From a virus (lineage: Duplodnaviria > Heunggongvirae > Uroviricota > Caudoviricetes), in IMG/VR virus record IMGVR_UViG_2737471817_000011, positions 1-12,149 of that record: 12,149 bases of DNA, one strand, 5' to 3'. Under the pieces are notes generated by a model. It was given only the letters and a program-made list of their open reading frames with translations, was not told the origin of the DNA and ran no database searches. Positions 1,346-8,644 of the stretch are shown piece after piece (within the stretch, counting starts at the first letter, position 1; each line of letters opens with the position of its first letter). Made by a program: the position numbers and the translations under genes.

Positions 1346-1426
1346 GTTGGCATTATAAAAAAGCATTGCTTATCAATTTGTTGCAACGAACAGGTCACTA
1401 TCAGTCAAAATAAAATCATTATTTGA
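1346..1426. promoter_or_regulatory. P' arm of attL with tandem Int arm-type sites (aggtcactat / cagtcaaaat, 1392-1411)
   Basis: Arm-type consensus-like decamers read directly at 1392-1401 and 1402-1411, followed by AT-rich aaaatcattatttg. The 3' end of int overlaps this arm, as in lambda. Confidence 0.7.
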
Positions 1427-2489
1427 TTTCAATTTTGTCCCACTCCCTGCCTCTGTCATCACGATACTGTGATGCCATGGTGTCCGACTTATGCCCGAGA
1501 AGATGTTGAGCAAACTTATCGCTTATCTGCTTCTCATAGAGTCTTGCAGACAAACTGCGCAACTCGTGAAAGGTAGGCGGATCCCCTTCGAAGGAAAGAC
1601 CTGATGCTTTTCGTGCGCGCATAAAATACCTTGATACTGTGCCGGATGAAAGCGGTTCACGACGAGTAGATGCAATTATGGTTTCTCCGCCAAGAATCTC
1701 TTTGCATTTATCAAGTGTTTCCTTCATTGATATCCCGAGAGCATCAACATGCAATGTTGTAGGTATGGCAATTTTTACGCCCGTTTTGCTTTGCTCGACA
1801 TAAAGATATCCATCTACGATATCAGACCACTTCATTTCGCATAAATCACCAACTCGTTGCCCGGTAACAACAGCCAGTTCCATTGCAAGTCTGAGCCAAC
1901 ATGGTGATGATTCTGCTGCTTGATAAATTTTCAGGTATTCGTCAGCTGTAAGTCTTGATCTCCTTACCTCTGATTTTGCTGCGCGAGTGGCAGCGACCGG
2001 GTTTGTTGTTATATGGCCTTCAGCTATAGCCTCTCGGAATGCATCGCTCAGTGTTGATCTGATTAACTTGGCTGATGCCGCCTTGCCCTCGTCAATGTAT
2101 CCATTGAGCATTGCCGCAATTTCTTTTGTGGTGATGTCTTCAAGTGGAGCATCAGGCAGACCCCTCCTTATTGCTTTAATTTTGCTCATGTAATTTATGA
2201 GTGTCTTCTGCTTGATTCCTCTGCTGGCGAGTATTTTTTCGTAGCGATCAAGCCATGAATGTAACGTAACAGAATTATCACTGTTGATTCTTGCTGTCAG
2301 AGGCTTGTGTTTGTGTCCTGAGAATAACTCAATGTTTGCCTGTATTGCTTCAGTAATTGCTATCCTCCTGTCTCTGCCTAATCCGAACTCTTTACCCGTC
2401 CTTGGGTCCCTGTAGCAGTAATATCCATTGTTTCTTAAATAAAGGTTAGGGGGTAAATCCCGGCGCTCATGACTTCGCCTTCTTCCCAT
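1419..2489 (-). CDS. int: Lambda-type tyrosine integrase Int
   Basis: 356-aa ORF starting MGRRRSHERRDLPPNLY and ending EWDKIEIK, near-identical to lambda Int as I recall it. Catalytic region contains HELRSL and GHKSDTMASQY (tyrosine recombinase R/H/Y signature). Sits next to the att core. Confidence 0.96.
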   Translation of the reverse strand: MGRRRSHERRDLPPNLYLRNNGYYCYRDPRTGKEFGLGRDRRIAITEAIQANIELFSGHKHKPLTARINSDNSVTLHSWLDRYEKILASRGIKQKTLINYMSKIKAIRRGLPDAPLEDITTKEIAAMLNGYIDEGKAASAKLIRSTLSDAFREAIAEGHITTNPVAATRAAKSEVRRSRLTADEYLKIYQAAESSPCWLRLAMELAVVTGQRVGDLCEMKWSDIVDGYLYVEQSKTGVKIAIPTTLHVDALGISMKETLDKCKEILGGETIIASTRREPLSSGTVSRYFMRARKASGLSFEGDPPTFHELRSLSARLYEKQISDKFAQHLLGHKSDTMASQYRDDRGREWDKIEIK

Positions 2490-3275: not shown

Positions 3276-3557
3276 TTAGCCATCAATATTCACCTTTATC
3301 GCGTACACCTTTACCGGTTTATCGCCGAAGTGCGGATGTGTGATTGTCTTGATTTCATAGCCGCCATACGGAACGTCAATTCTGCGGCTGGAATCGTCGC
3401 GCTTCGGATATCCCTTTGTGATAATCAGGCTGTCATACTCCCGTAACATAATTCGCTTATTCCAATAGTCATTACACAGGCGATACTCTTCCGTTTTCTC
3501 TCCTCGAATCATGGCATCGAAGTATTCACCTTTGACGGCAAGTTGTAGGTTAGCCAC
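3276..3557 (-). CDS. 93-aa phage accessory protein; N-terminal motif resembles PUA-like ASCH/DUF3850 beta-barrel proteins; positional analogue of lambda ea8.5
   Basis: ORF MANLQLAVKGEYFDAMIRGEKTEEYRLCNDYWNKR... The pattern hydrophobic-x-(E/P)YF-x-A-x-x-x-G-x-KT-x-E-x-R is typical of ASCH/DUF3850 N-termini. Its start overlaps the stop of the upstream Lar-like gene by 8 bp (operon). Confidence 0.5.
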   Translation of the reverse strand: MANLQLAVKGEYFDAMIRGEKTEEYRLCNDYWNKRIMLREYDSLIITKGYPKRDDSSRRIDVPYGGYEIKTITHPHFGDKPVKVYAIKVNIDG

Positions 3558-3852
3558 GGTTAACCTCCTGCGGAGTAGCCTTTACAAGCACTGGTGCAAA
3601 TCCATCTTCATTAAGGTTATGAATATAGACTTCTGTTCTCCTGCGCTCTTCAACGTTTAATATTGTTTCTGGATCATAAACCCATACTTTCATTCGACTA
3701 TTCCATGAAGAAATCGCTTCAGATCTAGTTCGTTTTTCTGGTCCTTGGGCACCACATTTGCATGACACATAGCGCATTTTCCCTCTGATACTGAATGAGT
3801 ATCCGATGTTAAGCACAGTGGAACCACAGAATGGGCAGCGATATAGATTCAT
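3550..3852 (-). CDS. Lar-family zinc-ribbon protein (putative restriction-alleviation / modification-enhancement protein)
   Basis: 100-aa ORF MNLYRCPFCGSTVLNIGYSFSIRGKMRYVSCKCGAQGPEK with a CPFCG...C-x-CG four-cysteine zinc ribbon near the N-terminus, as in Lar (RalR-like) proteins. AGGTGGA Shine-Dalgarno upstream. ATGA start/stop overlap with the upstream 254-aa gene. Confidence 0.6.
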   Translation of the reverse strand: MNLYRCPFCGSTVLNIGYSFSIRGKMRYVSCKCGAQGPEKRTRSEAISSWNSRMKVWVYDPETILNVEERRRTEVYIHNLNEDGFAPVLVKATPQEVNRG

Positions 3853-4610
3853 AAATCATCCACCTTAGGCGCAGCTGAGACAGCAACATTCCAGAACTCA
3901 GAAAACATATTGTATGCACCAGATAGATTGGAAGTGGCATACCCTCCAAGCTCACTTCTAATCTGAACGGCTCTCATCATTTCCGGCGTTAACTCCTTCG
4001 GCACCATAACCCAACCATCCGGAGTTACCGGAGAGTTGCCATTTATATCGAAGTTTGGCTCTGCGTCCTGAACCAGGAGGATGTAACCATTCTTGGCAGT
4101 ATCAAGTTCTAACGCCTCGGTGACGGTGCCGAAATAGCGATTGCCTAAATCAGCATCACAAGTGCTTACATCAATGGAAACTTCCATGCCTTCGATTAAT
4201 TCTGGCAAGTTGTAAGTTTGGCTTACATGTTGGCTACCCTGAAGCATGGCGGCGCGGCAGGCGTTCCAGCCTCTCACCTCTGCAATAGCGGCAACAGCAT
4301 CAACCGCGTACATTTTAAGAGGGTTAGGCATTGGTTTTTCTTCAGGTACTACTGGCACTGGAGGGGCGGCATAAACAGGAATAACGTCCGATTGCTCTTT
4401 ATTGCTTTCATCCGTTAAAGCCCAGAATAATTTTCCAGCCGGATGTTTGAAAATATAAGCAACTGGTTCTGCTTCCAGCGATGCCAGCGCCAACTTGAAC
4501 GCCTGAAGCTCAATGGCACTGTTGGTATCCAGTCCAAACGGTAATTCATCACGATTGGCTTCGTATTCAGCGATAGTTTGCTTCAGCCATTCTTTGGTTA
4601 GTTCAGCCAT
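3849..4610 (-). CDS. Hypothetical 253-aa phage early-left accessory protein (positional analogue of lambda ea22; family not recognised)
   Basis: Track ORF 3849-4661; I place the start at the internal ATG 4608-4610 (MAELTKEWLKQTIAEYEANRDELPFG...), which is preceded by AAGGGG. Acidic, proline-rich linker (PVYAAPPVPVVPEEKPMPNP) between two predicted domains. Translationally coupled to the Lar-like gene. Confidence 0.6.
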   Translation of the reverse strand: MAELTKEWLKQTIAEYEANRDELPFGLDTNSAIELQAFKLALASLEAEPVAYIFKHPAGKLFWALTDESNKEQSDVIPVYAAPPVPVVPEEKPMPNPLKMYAVDAVAAIAEVRGWNACRAAMLQGSQHVSQTYNLPELIEGMEVSIDVSTCDADLGNRYFGTVTEALELDTAKNGYILLVQDAEPNFDINGNSPVTPDGWVMVPKELTPEMMRAVQIRSELGGYATSNLSGAYNMFSEFWNVAVSAAPKVDDL

Positions 4611-4614
4611 ATCC

Positions 4615-4824
4615 CTAATTCCCCTTGGTGCTGACTTTGACGCCAACCTTGCGAATCTCATCGGCGCATCTGTTCACGATACTCCGGTGAAACTCACAAA
4701 AAATTTTCGCCGACTGCGGCCCTAATGGGTGAACATCGTGCGCACGCGGCAGTACAACCTCCCGCGCCTCCATGTCAGCAATCCGCTTGTCTTTGGCTTC
4801 CAGCTCATTCAGCAGCGCCAGCAA
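4615..4824 (-). CDS. Questionable small ORF at the deletion junction (TTG start in track; possible 5'-truncated remnant of an early-left gene)
   Basis: Translation LLNELEAKDKRIADMEAREVVLPRAHDVHPLGPQSAKIFCEFHRSIVNRCADEIRKVGVKVSTKGN. No ATG with a Shine-Dalgarno at its 5' end; an in-frame stop lies only 8 codons upstream. It ends 4 bp before the 254-aa gene start. Confidence 0.25.
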   Translation of the reverse strand: MLALLNELEAKDKRIADMEAREVVLPRAHDVHPLGPQSAKIFCEFHRSIVNRCADEIRKVGVKVSTKGN

Positions 4825-5747
4825 TTCAGCAGATTGATACTGAGATATCTAATCTGCAGAAGCTTGGTAAGGTGGCTGATAACGAGACTATTTCAAAACT
4901 TCAGTCATATCGTGATGAGCTTGTTCGCAATGCTGGTCCTGATGGTCCGGTCAATCTGGATTTGAAGCAATTAAGCGATCTGCGCAGCCAGTTCAGAATG
5001 GACGTGAAGGGTGAGCGACCAGTGTTACCAAACCGTTCCGATGCTGCCATTCAGCGAGTTTACAAGGCGATGACCGACGATATCAATGGTGCCATTGGTC
5101 AGAATCTTGGCAATGATACTCTTCGTAAATATCAGCAGGCCAATGCCGTCTACGCTGACGAAGCGGCGAAACTAAAGAATACCAGGCTGAAGAATGTTCT
5201 CATGAAAGGCGACCTGACTCCGGAAGTTGTCAACAACATGCTATTCAGCAAGAACAAATCGGAAATTAAGACTCTGTATAACTCAGTTGGTCGTGTTGGC
5301 AGGGCGCAAATGCGCAATGGCATCATTGGAAAGGCGATGGAGAAATCAGGTGGTTCCCCTGACCAGTTCCTTCGGCAGCTTAATATCCTGCAAAACCATA
5401 CTGGCATCACATTTAAGGGGCAGGACTCTGCTTATCTGAAAGGATTAAAAAACTACCTGCAATCCACGCAGCAGGCTGCAAAAGCGGCAGTAACAACACC
5501 CACAGGGCAGCAAACTATCCCGTTCATTATTGGGTATGGGACGGCAATGAACCCGGCGACAACTGGCGCAGCAGTAAGCTATGGACTTCTTACGCGCGTC
5601 TATGAGAGCGAGCCATTCAGAAATGCAATGCTCCGAATGGCAAACACCCCGCGCGGATCAACAGCGTTTGAGAAAGCCATGCAGCAGGCACAAAAGGCAA
5701 TTAACGCTATGACGCAGGGGGCTAAGTCTGATGCGTTGTCAGAATAG
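4725..5747 (+). pseudogene. Probable 3' fragment of a P22-like internal virion / DNA-ejection protein gene (gp16-like by position); the first ~35 codons of the track ORF are probably not coding
   Basis: Long + strand ORF ending 90 bp before a convergent mnt-like gene, the position gene 16 occupies relative to mnt in P22. The C-terminal region is Ala/Gln-rich (QQAAKAAVTTPTGQQ...MQQAQKAINAMTQGAK). The N-terminal 4725-4830 is GC-rich, low-complexity and overlaps a minus-strand ORF. Confidence 0.4.
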
Positions 5748-5836
5748 CTTTTCAAACACCAGGAAAGTACAAAAACCAAATATGTAGAATGCAATATTCA
5801 TCATATCTCTTTGCATAAATCCTCCGTAATGGATGG

Positions 5837-6097
5837 TTAGTTGCTGTCTTTTTTATATAGCTCCTTGAGCGTATCAAAGACAATTTTCTTAACCATATCA
5901 GATTGTTGTTCTGCCATACGCTCTGCATCGTCAATGTAAACTGATGCAGAGCTTTGTTTATCCAATGATTCTTCAATCGCTGCAATTATCTCTGAGTTCA
6001 GCGACCTGTTATTCATCTTCGCACGCTGCTTAATTTTCGCGTGGAGTTCATGCGGAAGTCTCAAGTGAAACTGCGCCTCGTCGTATTTGCTGTACAT
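5837..6097 (-). CDS. mnt: Mnt-like ribbon-helix-helix repressor (immI-type)
   Basis: From the internal ATG at 6095-6097 (AAGGA Shine-Dalgarno upstream): MYSKYDEAQFHLRLPHELHAKIKQRAKMNNRSLNSEIIAAIEESL...DAERMAEQQSDMVKKIVFDTLKELYKKDSN. Closely parallels P22 Mnt as I recall it (FNFRMPMEV...GRSMNSELLQIVQDAL...DAERLADEQSELVKKMVFDTLKDLYKK). Confidence 0.8.
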   Translation of the reverse strand: MYSKYDEAQFHLRLPHELHAKIKQRAKMNNRSLNSEIIAAIEESLDKQSSASVYIDDAERMAEQQSDMVKKIVFDTLKELYKKDSN

Positions 6098-6170
6098 CCT
6101 TGATGCCTCACCAGTTGGGTGGAATGGCATCGTAACCTACTGGATAAATACTCAACAGTACCATTTCGGT

Positions 6171-6193: not shown

Positions 6194-6228
6194 CATATCA
6201 TTCGTCTGGAGCAATGAAATGTCAGATA

Positions 6229-6729
6229 TCACCTACTCAACAGATGGTCAGCAACCATGTTTGCTGCCTTATAAGCTATAGCAGCTTCATCAATGGTGTT
6301 GAATCTCCCAAGGGTTATGTTTTTACCTGAGACATTTATCTGAGCTTGCCATTGATTTCTGGCTTGACAGAAAGTTACCCCCTTGATCCCAGCATTGCTA
6401 TTTCGAGGTCCGACATTTAATGCATTTACGACTCTGCTGACATCCCTAAGGTTTGAGATTGCGTTATTTCTTCTGTTTCTATCAATGTGGTCAATCTCTT
6501 GTTTGGGCCATTCGCCATATACATACAGCCAGGCAAGTCTATGTGCAAAATATCTTACGCCATCAATATTAATTGCGTTATATCCATAAGAAATTGTGCC
6601 AGCAACTTTCCCAACAGCACCTCTGGCGCTTAATTTCTTTTTCCAAGTGAAAATTCCTGTTTCTTTATTGTAATCGAGAACCTCCATAAGGCGCTCCCGA
6701 GTTACTACCTCGTGACGTCTCTTACTCAT
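6229..6729 (-). CDS. HNH endonuclease with C-terminal AP2-type DNA-binding domain (homing-endonuclease-like)
   Basis: From the ATG at 6727-6729 (GGAG Shine-Dalgarno upstream): [14 protein letters not shown]... HNH_3-type motif [36 protein letters not shown], then AP2-like [43 protein letters not shown]. Confidence 0.8.
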
Positions 6730-6751
6730 TATTTTCTCCGGAATGTTTATT

Positions 6752-8644
6752 ATGCCAGAACAATTATACAACGTTGTTGTTTCACAACCAAGTCAGTTAT
6801 TTACTTTAGCTCGCTCGTTTAAAGCAAATGCCAATGGCAAAATTTATATCGGAAAAATTGACACTGACCCTGTAAATCCTGAAAACCAGATTCAGGTTTA
6901 TGTGGAAAACGAAGACGGCTCTCACGTTCCTGTATCGCAACCAATCATCATTAACGCTGCTGGTTACCCGGTATATAACGGACAGATTTCCAAGTTCGTA
7001 ACCGCGCAAGGCTATTCTATGGCTGTGTACGATGCATACGGCTCTCAGGAGTATTACTTCTCGAGAGTTAAAAATGACACGCGGTCAGTCACATCATTCC
7101 TGAGTAGCAGGGAATTATGGAAGAAGTACTTGAAGGAATTTGGAATCGTTCTAGTTGATGGTAGCTTTGAGGAAGGGGCAACAGTTAGCGCACCAAATCA
7201 GGCTGTATGGTATAAGTTTGATGGAAAGTGCTATGCAAGAGTAACCGGAGATAGCGTTATCGTTGCATCTGGCTCATCGCCAGACTCAGGCTGGACATCT
7301 GACATTGGCTCACGCATTAAAGCGTGGCTCCCTAATACATCACCAAATACAGATGTATCTACGCGTTTGCAGGCATTGCTTACAGTCGGGAAAGGTGAGA
7401 TTAAAATCCCTGACGGGCGCTATACGGTAAACACCGTCCTTATTACTAACTTTAGCGATTCATCATTCCCATCACTGGGGGCTGGCAGTCCACGTTATAA
7501 TTTTAGCGGTTCATCGATTAACAATACTATTTTCACGGTTTCTGATAATTACTTGCTGAATCACACTGGTGGGGTGAGCGGAACTGTAGTTCATGGAACA
7601 AACACTTATATGAGAACCGGTGATTGTCAGATAATTGGAACTGGAGCAACAAGTAGCGGTGGTTTCAAGTTTAGTTTTTGCACATTTATTGAAGTCGAAA
7701 ATATACGTGCAGCATTGCTTGGAATTCCAGTGTATTTTGCAAACTGCATATATAACTATGTGCGAAACATCAGAGTTGATAATTCTCTGTACGGCATATT
7801 TACAGAAAGTTCAGATCCATCATTCCCAACAAATTCAACATTTGTTGATGATTCAACATTTACTTACTGCTCAAGATATGCTGTAGAGGCGACCATTGGT
7901 CTCACCTTTAACATGACCAATTGCAGTATTGAGAAAAATGGTGTACAAGGTGATGTAAATACTGGTGGGATTTATTTAAAGGTTACTGAGCCGTTAAGTG
8001 TTATAAATATCACTGGAACGTATTTTGAAGCAAACAAAGGAAATGCTGACATAACTGTCCTTAACTCTGGCGGCGGCACCATAGTCGTAAATTTAATAGG
8101 TTGCACGTTTAACAGAGGTAACTCAGATGGGGGTTATACATTAACAAACTTCAAATCACTGTCTCATGCAGGGGTTGGTAAGATTATACTAAATCTACAA
8201 GGGTGTCATTTCTTCTCAAATACATCGTGGGGATTTACTCCATCGGCTGATAAACCTTTTATTACACCTGACACATGGCTTACTGTTAATGGTCTGGATA
8301 CATGTACATTCAGTGAAACAACAAGTCTACCAGACACTATTCAATCAAGCTCATCCAGTATTAGCGTCAAGGTTGCTGCGGATGGTACAAAAATCAGCGG
8401 CCCATCCTACATCACAACGTCAAAAACAGGAACTGGAGTTTATTCAGTAACAAGTAATTATCCATTAGGTACATCGCCTGTTGGCAATGATTATTCCGTA
8501 ATGGCTATATCCAACATCGATGGTTTTGTTGTTACAAGCTCGGCAAATCAAAGTGCAACTTCCTTTAATGTAAGAACTAAAAGTTCTTCCGGTTCCGCTG
8601 CAGACACAGCCTTTAGTGTGACAATTACAAGACGAATTGGGTGA
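6752..8644 (+). CDS. Tailspike protein: P22-type N-terminal head-binding domain plus a distinct beta-helix-like receptor-binding domain
   Basis: Residues ~10-105 ([72 protein letters not shown]...AVYDAYGSQ) parallel the P22 gp9 head-binding domain as I recall it. The rest is Ser/Thr/Asn/Gly-rich with repeated N-x-(S/T) and Cys-containing short repeats, typical of right-handed beta-helix depolymerases. Alternative start at 6743. Confidence 0.85.

Follow-up and report, generated by a model that had tools for sequence, protein, structure and literature searches.

A conserved 23–25-residue hydrophobic micro-ORF beside the gp16-type ejection gene of P22-like prophages, a candidate superinfection-exclusion peptide

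Does the narrow gap between a truncated DNA-ejection gene and an mnt-like repressor gene hold a gene of its own, and what would its product do? The window analysed here, a 12,149-nt stretch of viral DNA (IMG/VR record IMGVR_UViG_2737471817_000011), is overall a P22-like prophage remnant of ~10 kb adjoining ybhC, with the gene order integrase, Lar homologue, truncated ejection gene, mnt, HNH/AP2 gene, tailspike gene and gtr-like genes. Homology to Sf6 gene 13 begins only at nt 4821. An 89-nt gap separates the gp16-like stop (5745–5747) from the mnt-like stop (5837–5839), and here the original prediction, made from the sequence alone, placed an unannotated 25-codon hydrophobic ORF on the minus strand, with GGAGGA 3 nt before its ATG. 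Its coordinates and sequence features are confirmed (Table 1): read from the window sequence, the ORF runs from an ATG at 5816–5814 to a TGA stop at 5741–5739. It is convergent with the gp16-like gene, whose final 9 nt cover the ORF's stop and the two codons before it.

Table 1. Positions of the small ORF and of neighbouring features in the window
Feature	Position	Strand	Remarks
Small ORF	5739..5816	-	25 codons + stop, product MQRDMMNIAFYIFGFCTFLVFEKLF
Shine-Dalgarno GGAGGA	5820..5825	-	TTT spacer before the small-ORF ATG
gp16-type (Sf6 gene 13-like) DNA-ejection gene, 3' two-fifths	4821..5747	+	5' side truncated
gp16-like hydrophobic Gly-rich segment IPFIIGYGTAMNPATTGAAVSYGLLT	5517..5594	+	Counterpart of the BTP1 escape segment
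mnt-like Arc/Mnt ribbon-helix-helix repressor gene	5837..6130	-	Pfam Arc 1e-14, Repressor_Mnt 3e-14
Sigma-70-like promoter candidate, weak, CTGACA-17-AATGAT	6197..6225	-	Upstream of mnt, 9/12 match

The encoded peptide would open with a polar N-terminus (MQRD) and continue into a hydrophobic stretch of ~18 residues that is predicted to form a single transmembrane helix. GRAVY is 0.91 over all 25 residues and 2.35 over residues 8–21. The GGAGG core of the Shine-Dalgarno (SD) motif lies 4 nt from the ATG, and spacing this short counts against translation. Only one instance of GGAGG-N3-9-ATG followed by at least 20 codons occurs in the window, namely the small ORF; first-order Markov simulations of the window yield a mean of 0.67 such ORFs, and a strongly hydrophobic SD-led ORF arises in ~2% of them. 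Taken by itself the small ORF is within chance expectation, and the window alone is not decisive. The ORF is judged to be beyond chance because of comparative evidence, not window statistics.

In the window, the small ORF is probably the distal gene of an mnt transcript. The mnt stop lies 20 nt upstream of the ORF's ATG on a common strand, the ORF following mnt in the sense of transcription, and a scan of the window finds no terminator-like site between the two; this spacing and the lack of an intervening terminator suggest co-transcription. The true start of the mnt-like gene is likely the ATG at 6097, and its P22 counterpart is expressed in the lysogen. The CTGACA-17-AATGAT site upstream of mnt is a candidate for driving the joint transcript, its match being not above shuffle expectation. 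Strict scans around the ORF in the window, Sf6, locus L086 and BTP1 return no canonical promoters or terminators above shuffle expectation, and the scan of the window detects no promoter-like site near the ORF on the opposite strand. A TATAAT 22 nt upstream of the ATG is conserved in the 23-aa subfamily described below, with a -35 element absent. A stable hairpin just past the stop of the BTP1 ORF (-17.3 kcal/mol, z = -3) was set aside, being unconserved in the window, Sf6 and Citrobacter copies. The copy in the window may be idle because the prophage is a deletion remnant.

Related elements carry the same stretch. The 78 nt of the ORF are found in phages IME10, Sf6, Gally, ECO26.1, 683R2 and 720R6, at the DNA level in VSe13, and in 334 of 5,426 complete E. 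coli genomes (about 6%). A CDS annotation is absent from every listed record that carries the stretch, so the ORF is indeed unannotated, as had been stated. All 82 close matches keep the ORF intact, with 30 peptide variants among them. Loci were also gathered through the C-terminal 199 aa of the adjacent gp16-type protein, which makes the sample independent of the ORF, and in 172 of these 180 gp16-anchored loci the frame is intact. The eight exceptions are P22 (a fetched comparator in which sieA occupies the ORF's place), truncated or fragmentary gp16 matches, an ORF-less variant, and a locus from Yersinia that has another membrane ORF, of 42 aa, instead. No decayed copies, whether by loss of the start, premature stop or frameshift, occur among the gp16-anchored loci. 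The sole altered copy (L277) came from a later pattern scan; it has lost its stop, giving 52 aa, and the end of its gp16 is disrupted too.

The check proposed with the original prediction, conservation in related prophages, is borne out in two subfamilies. The 25-aa form is found in Escherichia and Shigella elements, and the window's peptide is present in identical form at loci L059, L205 and L260. The 23-aa form is found in Salmonella, Citrobacter, Klebsiella and Erwinia; it is carried by Salmonella phages BTP1, g341c, MG40, ST104, ST64T, L and SPN9CC, by Klebsiella phage phiKp_30 and E. coli phage HF4s, and by loci from Citrobacter, Pseudescherichia and Ca. Erwinia genomes (for example, MERDLLNFAFLIFGLVVGKLLFA). 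Searches of Pfam, NCBIfam and PHROGs give no credible family match to the peptide, the best scores (phrog_26923, E = 0.04; Adipogenin, E = 0.13) being taken as noise. Exact look-up of ten peptide variants in a collection of 15 billion proteins finds none of them, gene callers rarely emitting 25-aa products, and the peptide sequence is absent from the searchable literature.

Comparison among these copies indicates that the ORF is protein-coding, with purifying selection in frame and with start, stop and frame maintained. Selection on the ORF is moderate: pN/pS in its frame is about 0.31–0.34 in the 25-aa subfamily and about 0.25 in the 23-aa subfamily, the lowest value among the six frames, and only this frame of the six is open in both subfamilies. 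The ORF's synonymous sites have diverged as much (pS 0.23 in the 25-aa and 0.65 in the 23-aa subfamily) as those of the gp16 gene next to it (0.18 and 0.60), and pN of the ORF is 3–4 times lower. Minimum mutations at codon positions 1/2/3 number 17/9/44 in the 23-aa subfamily (chi-square ~28); the counts of 18/13/23 in the 25-aa subfamily show no significant bias, which counts against coding. The lack of nonsense mutations is mildly unlikely at most (P ~0.19 and ~0.04 in the two subfamilies). The subfamily consensuses agree at nine of the 16 N-terminal residues, and seven of these nine use different codons, such as Arg AGA vs CGA, or CGT in some 23-aa members (L088, BTP1). Among 166 distinct haplotypes, 97 carry GGAGG at a distance of 4 nt from the ATG, among them members of both subfamilies with unrelated upstream contexts; the SD-like motifs of the Sf6-type and Gally-type 25-aa contexts are only weak, which again counts against. 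A reading in which the plus strand extends gp16 by read-through was rejected, as that frame is closed in the 23-aa subfamily and its pN/pS is 1.44.

The ORF behaves as a cassette tied to one type of gp16. Many E. coli matches stop exactly at the ATG (window 5817), which marks a homology breakpoint, and a second breakpoint lies at the ORF stop, where the gp16 of ORF-less variants ends in ALSW instead of ALSE before its stop codon. Upstream of the ATG, at least five unrelated contexts are found across loci: mnt as in the window (38 loci), a lipoprotein gene (Gally type), divergent lipoprotein genes, the tailspike start (Sf6 type and most 23-aa loci), and others. Scanning IMG/VR with a degenerate DNA pattern that encodes the peptide's N-terminal half gave at least 119 matching stretches. 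A few of these lie at contig ends and have an unreadable flank; among the matches listed, all those with a readable flank converge on a gp16-type C-terminus ending in QGAKS.ALSE. Peptide subfamily also tracks the type of the gp16 hydrophobic segment. Within subfamilies, co-variation between peptide and segment is weak (r = 0.37 vs 0.28 for a nearer patch) and confounded by linkage, and it was dropped as evidence. The association with gp16 could simply stem from the physical overlap of 9–12 nt.

A homologue of the peptide lies inside a fragment with a published exclusion phenotype. In prophage BTP1 of S. Typhimurium D23580, STnc6030 is a 786-nt lysogen transcript reported to exclude BTP1 as an antisense RNA (Owen et al., 2020, Microb Genom 6:e000330; PMC7067206). 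It was classed as non-coding because it holds no ORF above 60 aa (PMC7067206). The BTP1 homologue has 23 aa (MERDLLNFVFLIFGLVVGKLLFA), and its ORF (D23580 404321–404250) is wholly within STnc6030 (D23580 403942–404727) and overlaps the end of the gp16-type gene by 12 nt. The primers used to clone pPL-STnc6030 map to positions 1095 and 1880 of locus L300, so the insert carries the ORF together with its SD, and besides this 23-codon ORF the STnc6030 strand of the insert has no ATG ORF that reaches 20 aa. Constitutive pPL-STnc6030 confers total immunity to BTP1 and none to P22, and it leaves phage yield on induction unlowered (PMC7067206). Five escape phages carry four unique single SNPs within D23580 404041–404078, and all escape SNPs are non-synonymous in STMMW_03891 (PMC7067206). 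The main species on Northern blots are ~500 and 480 nt (PMC7067206), and expression values in D23580 are 28–178 for STnc6030 vs 3–16 for the gp16-like gene. The sole later paper on the function of STnc6030, a 2025 review, retains the description as an antisense RNA.

The window and BTP1 share a layout and differ in their surroundings. Like STnc6030, the window's ORF is antisense to, and overlaps, the 3' end of a gp16 gene of the Sf6/L/BTP1 type. Homology of the window ORF to BTP1 is at the peptide level only, with the start context GGAGGxTTTATG in common. Whereas the BTP1 transcript starts inside the tailspike gene, in the window mnt and the HNH gene separate the ORF from the tailspike gene; the promoter region that BTP1 has within its tailspike gene is unconserved in the window. 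STnc6030 has been described as a non-coding RNA, but the conserved element in the present comparison is the micro-ORF. The window's peptide belongs to the 25-aa subfamily, while the published exclusion concerns the 23-aa region of BTP1.

The BTP1 escape mutations point to a short segment of gp16. They lie 172–209 nt past the ORF stop and map to gp16 residues 583–595 (ILGIGTVTNPALV), in the middle of the 19-mer with the highest hydrophobicity in the analysed C-terminal stretch of gp16 (502 residues). By entropy the segment is variable, yet it is not the most variable patch. SieA, an inner-membrane protein of P22, blocks DNA delivery (Leavitt et al., PMC10883804), and escape from SieA involves gp16 G532W and P546S together with changes in gp20 (PMC10883804). 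The C-termini of BTP1 and P22 gp16 share 40% identity by BLASTP (E = 1e-22), and P22 residues 540–552 align with the BTP1 escape window, P546 being at its centre. Since P546 aligns inside that window, two exclusion systems are escaped via one short gp16 segment, and of the two, SieA is already known as a membrane protein that acts at the step of DNA entry.

The P22 interval also bears on the position of the ORF. It had been proposed to hold the sieA region, correctly so: the P22 order is gene 16, sieA, orf59a, mnt. Like sieA, the window's ORF sits on the anti-late strand directly after the gp16 gene, and like sieA it would be expressed from the prophage. SieA is far larger, with ~160 aa and several membrane segments vs 25 aa and one predicted helix, and its P22 translation has no sequence resemblance to the peptide. 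SieA acts on P22-like phages broadly, whereas the BTP1 fragment leaves P22 unexcluded, and SieA accompanies a different gp16 type. Descent of the ORF from the 3' end of sieA was considered and rejected, as the peptide has no likeness to the SieA C-terminus and the P22 gp16 end differs. The P22 "orf25" (25 codons, MSGLDNGLYHRLDIIRFIPSMWGGG) is an unrelated ORF elsewhere in that genome.

The explanation favoured here, to which we give an even chance, is that the small ORF is a genuine unannotated gene for a single-helix inner-membrane peptide that would block gp16-dependent DNA entry, co-transcribed in this remnant with mnt. The cassette would be tied to the 3' end of the Sf6/L/BTP1-type gp16 ejection gene in P22-like phages, and the lysogen would transcribe it against the late operon; elsewhere the ORF lies behind a lipoprotein moron gene or is read from promoters in or near the tailspike gene. 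From the cytoplasmic membrane the peptide would engage the hydrophobic C-terminal segment of an incoming gp16 of the cognate type, the proposed target in the window being the segment encoded at 5517–5594. The trans-envelope DNA conduit would be left incomplete and superinfecting DNA kept out, while prophage induction would be unaffected by the peptide. We infer translation of the ORF, membrane insertion of the peptide and its direct contact with gp16; we take the peptide, not the RNA, to be the effector, and expect the E. coli subfamily of 25 aa and the remnant copy to act like the BTP1 homologue. The peptide reading accounts for the protein-like conservation, the type specificity, the non-synonymous gp16 escapes, the unaffected induction and the parallel with SieA. 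By extension, we would as readily believe as doubt that "STnc6030" and its counterparts are mRNAs encoding a new family of single-helix superinfection-exclusion "immunity peptides", each matched to the neighbouring gp16 gene, that would neutralise the C-terminal segment with which gp16-type ejection proteins insert into the membrane.

The published view of STnc6030 offers an alternative, in which the antisense RNA is the functional product, pairing with late mRNA at the 3' end of gp16, and the ORF is irrelevant or tolerated. An RNA effector fits the published data insofar as BTP1 is excluded and P22, whose DNA is dissimilar there, is not, and insofar as the SNPs fall within the transcribed region (PMC7067206); STnc6030 is still treated as an antisense RNA in the 2025 review. 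An RNA-only model, however, predicts no 3-periodic substitutions, no conservation of residues through codon changes, no kept SD and ATG, and no in-frame change of length between subfamilies. A single mismatch in 786 nt of perfect complementarity should barely weaken antisense pairing. The unique escape SNPs all change residues of the gp16 hydrophobic segment, homologous to the SieA-escape site. Over-expression of STnc6030 spares phage yield on induction though the same late mRNA is made, and the ~500/480-nt species, if they begin at the mapped 5' end, would miss the SNP region. The ORF persists in the window and at Gally-type loci even though other genes stand there in place of the upstream two-thirds of STnc6030. 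On this evidence an RNA acting alone seems unlikely; a dual-function RNA is possible.

A second alternative is a real small membrane protein whose role is not exclusion: it might act like a type I toxin, modulate a membrane protein or transporter of the host, or serve in lysogenic conversion. Many small membrane proteins and toxins are of like size and hydrophobicity and lie in prophages, and the gene is expressed with moron-like genes. A general host-directed role nonetheless leaves unexplained the linkage to one gp16 type in all assessable matches among the at least 119 listed, and phage exclusion is the only phenotype known for a fragment carrying the ORF. Rfam, Pfam, NCBIfam and PHROGs contain no matching cognate antisense sRNA or toxin family, and constitutive expression of the BTP1 fragment from PLlacO-1 is tolerated, with usable lawns (PMC7067206). 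Another role for the protein is, on balance, decidedly unlikely. Very improbable is the view that the ORF is not a gene at all and that its frame hitch-hikes with the gp16 3' end under nucleotide-level constraint on the intercistronic region of the late operon. Chance expectation for the window-alone ORF accords with that view, as do the close relatedness of the sequences, their recombination as blocks and the weak statistics of the 25-aa subfamily. It does not explain why synonymous sites of the ORF diverge at the pace of gp16 and non-synonymous sites do not, nor the third-position excess (44 vs 17 and 9), the conserved residues with replaced codons and the SD kept across contexts; no alternative frame is open in both subfamilies.

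The original prediction had named two roles for a short hydrophobic peptide here, and they fare differently. An exclusion peptide receives indirect support from a conserved small hydrophobic gene in sieA's place with a homologue inside the BTP1 exclusion fragment. A small membrane toxin is unsupported: no toxin or antisense-RNA family matches, and expression of the BTP1 fragment still gave lawns for plaque assays, which speaks against strong toxicity; the conserved antisense RNA that was to be looked for did not emerge, a scan of the window at Rfam gathering thresholds giving 0 matches. Type I toxins (Hok, Ldr, Ibs, TisB, ShoB) are hydrophobic, ~20–50 aa long and often found in prophages, and the peptide is likewise small and hydrophobic; for toxin and small ORF alike, a fully complementary transcript lies on the other strand. 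Unlike for type I toxins, a dedicated antitoxin sRNA or family match was not found in these searches, the SD is strong and not sequestered, and expression is apparently tolerated. Type I toxin genes are free-standing, whereas the small ORF is linked to gp16.

Further parallels come from exclusion and immunity proteins of the inner membrane. HK97 gp15 and T4 Imm are small inner-membrane proteins of the resident phage that stop genome entry, with specificity set by the injection machinery of the incoming phage. They are unrelated to the peptide in sequence, several times larger, have two or more membrane segments or extra domains, and stand in a different gene context. Immunity genes of pore-forming colicins also encode small membrane proteins and are convergent at the 3' end of a gene for a membrane-inserting protein. 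Their products neutralise the colicin within the inner membrane in a type-specific manner. With 3–4 helices, they guard against a toxin, not a phage conduit, and share no homology with the peptide, so the analogy is one of layout and logic only.

Membrane proteins of prophages that prevent DNA from entering were known already, and so was the exclusion conferred by the BTP1 region. Apparently new are a conserved family of 23–25-aa genes held by no database and the likelihood that this family is the real effector of the published "RNA" exclusion system. Should the effector prove to be the peptide, superinfection exclusion by STnc6030, a textbook-bound case of RNA mediation, would pass to a micro-protein, which, at 23–25 residues and one helix, would be the smallest exclusion factor known. 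Together with the SieA escape data, it would mark the short hydrophobic segment of gp16 as the vulnerable step in podovirus DNA delivery, and entry of the trans-envelope conduit into the inner membrane could be studied with the peptide as a minimal tool. Conserved prophage genes are hidden by length cut-offs, which stood at 60 aa in the original study and stand at ~30 aa in gene callers; hundreds of sequenced E. coli and Salmonella genomes carry this ORF, and none annotates it.

Published expression data for E. coli LF82 bear on the 25-aa subfamily. In its Gally prophage, the ORF lies 21 nt downstream of the stop of the lipoprotein gene GALLYPH_13. The authors of the LF82 study scored no Gally gene as a moron at a 5-fold cut-off, which counts against the favoured explanation. 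In LB, GALLYPH_13 has 70 normalised counts vs a prophage median of 15.6 (4.5 times background), the ORF itself being uncounted. In macrophages, GALLYPH_13 reaches a log2 fpkm of 10.3, and the Gally gp16-type gene 3.6–4.2.

The window is a P22-like prophage remnant of about 10 kb adjoining ybhC (table). The gp16-type DNA-ejection gene is homologous to Sf6 gene 13 only from nt 4821 onward, so the element must have lost the bulk of its early and morphogenetic genes; mnt, the tailspike gene, and gtr-like genes are retained. The HNH/AP2-domain gene probably starts at an ATG at 6729, and the divergent tailspike start lies 13 nt away, at 6743 on the plus strand. Given this short gap, any promoter of the HNH/AP2-domain gene must be within the tailspike coding region. 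The promoter of STnc6030, the published antisense transcript of phage BTP1 linked to superinfection exclusion, is likewise situated within tailspike coding sequence.

Features of the prophage remnant and of two related loci
Feature	Sequence	Position	Strand	Remark
Lambda-type integrase	window	1419-2489		
Lar homologue	window	3550-3852		
Unknown ORF	window	3849-4661		270 aa
gp16-type gene	window	after the 270-aa ORF		Sf6 gene 13 homology only from nt 4821; junction near 4821
HNH/AP2-domain gene	window	6229-6771	minus	on the mnt strand, between mnt and the tailspike gene
Lipoprotein gene LF82_138	phage Gally (L003)	1739-2254	minus	signal peptide and LAGC lipobox
Stable hairpin	BTP1 (L300)	1565-1599		spans the small-ORF stop; -17.3 kcal/mol, z = -3.0

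In BTP1, an RNA that started at the mapped 5' end of STnc6030 and stopped at the hairpin, which spans the stop of the small hydrophobic ORF, would be ~505 nt long, in agreement with the main Northern band of ~500 nt. Such an RNA would leave out the proposed antisense 'seed'. The window lacks a conserved counterpart of this hairpin.

On the opposite strand, each of the 40 unique sequences of the 25-aa small-ORF subfamily keeps the gp16 frame open for about 30 codons beyond the TAG stop (window 5745-5840, plus strand). A coding extension of gp16 past the stop is nevertheless rejected, as this stretch has a pN/pS of 1.44 and members of the 23-aa subfamily do not have it open.

Elements upstream of the small ORF vary among loci. 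Loci of the 23-aa subfamily have, in the spacer that separates the ORF from the tailspike start (L086, about 2165-2260; BTP1, 1420-1500), a perfect TATAAT 22 nt 5' of the small-ORF ATG, with no recognisable -35 element; the same spacer contains TTGCG(C/T) repeats and a 7-bp hairpin. Either divergent gene, the small ORF or the tailspike gene, could be regulated through these elements. In Gally, the lipoprotein gene lies directly 5' of the small ORF. Its expression in LB is second only to the repressor among Gally genes and it is induced in macrophages; its value of 70 falls slightly below the published moron cut-off of 78.

The position after gp16 also has other occupants. In an ORF-less variant (L303, 1357-1452; also L304, L057, and L066), gp16 ends in ...ALSW*, and 31 codons of the pre-tailspike spacer share the reading frame of the annotated tailspike ATG and encode MNRRSFFKSIASFVALTPLSSLSNMSNRIAH. 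By sequence, this peptide resembles a twin-arginine signal peptide, which would be unusual for a tailspike. In Yersinia aleksiciae (L089, 2116-2244, minus strand), another 42-aa ORF, VLEIASFVALAAIVYLIRQVGILSNRVSELEKITDRLNDKIN, unlike the small ORF, occupies the same convergent place after a gp16-type gene. It has an N-terminal hydrophobic helix and a GGAGG Shine-Dalgarno sequence, and may be a cassette analogous to that of the small ORF.
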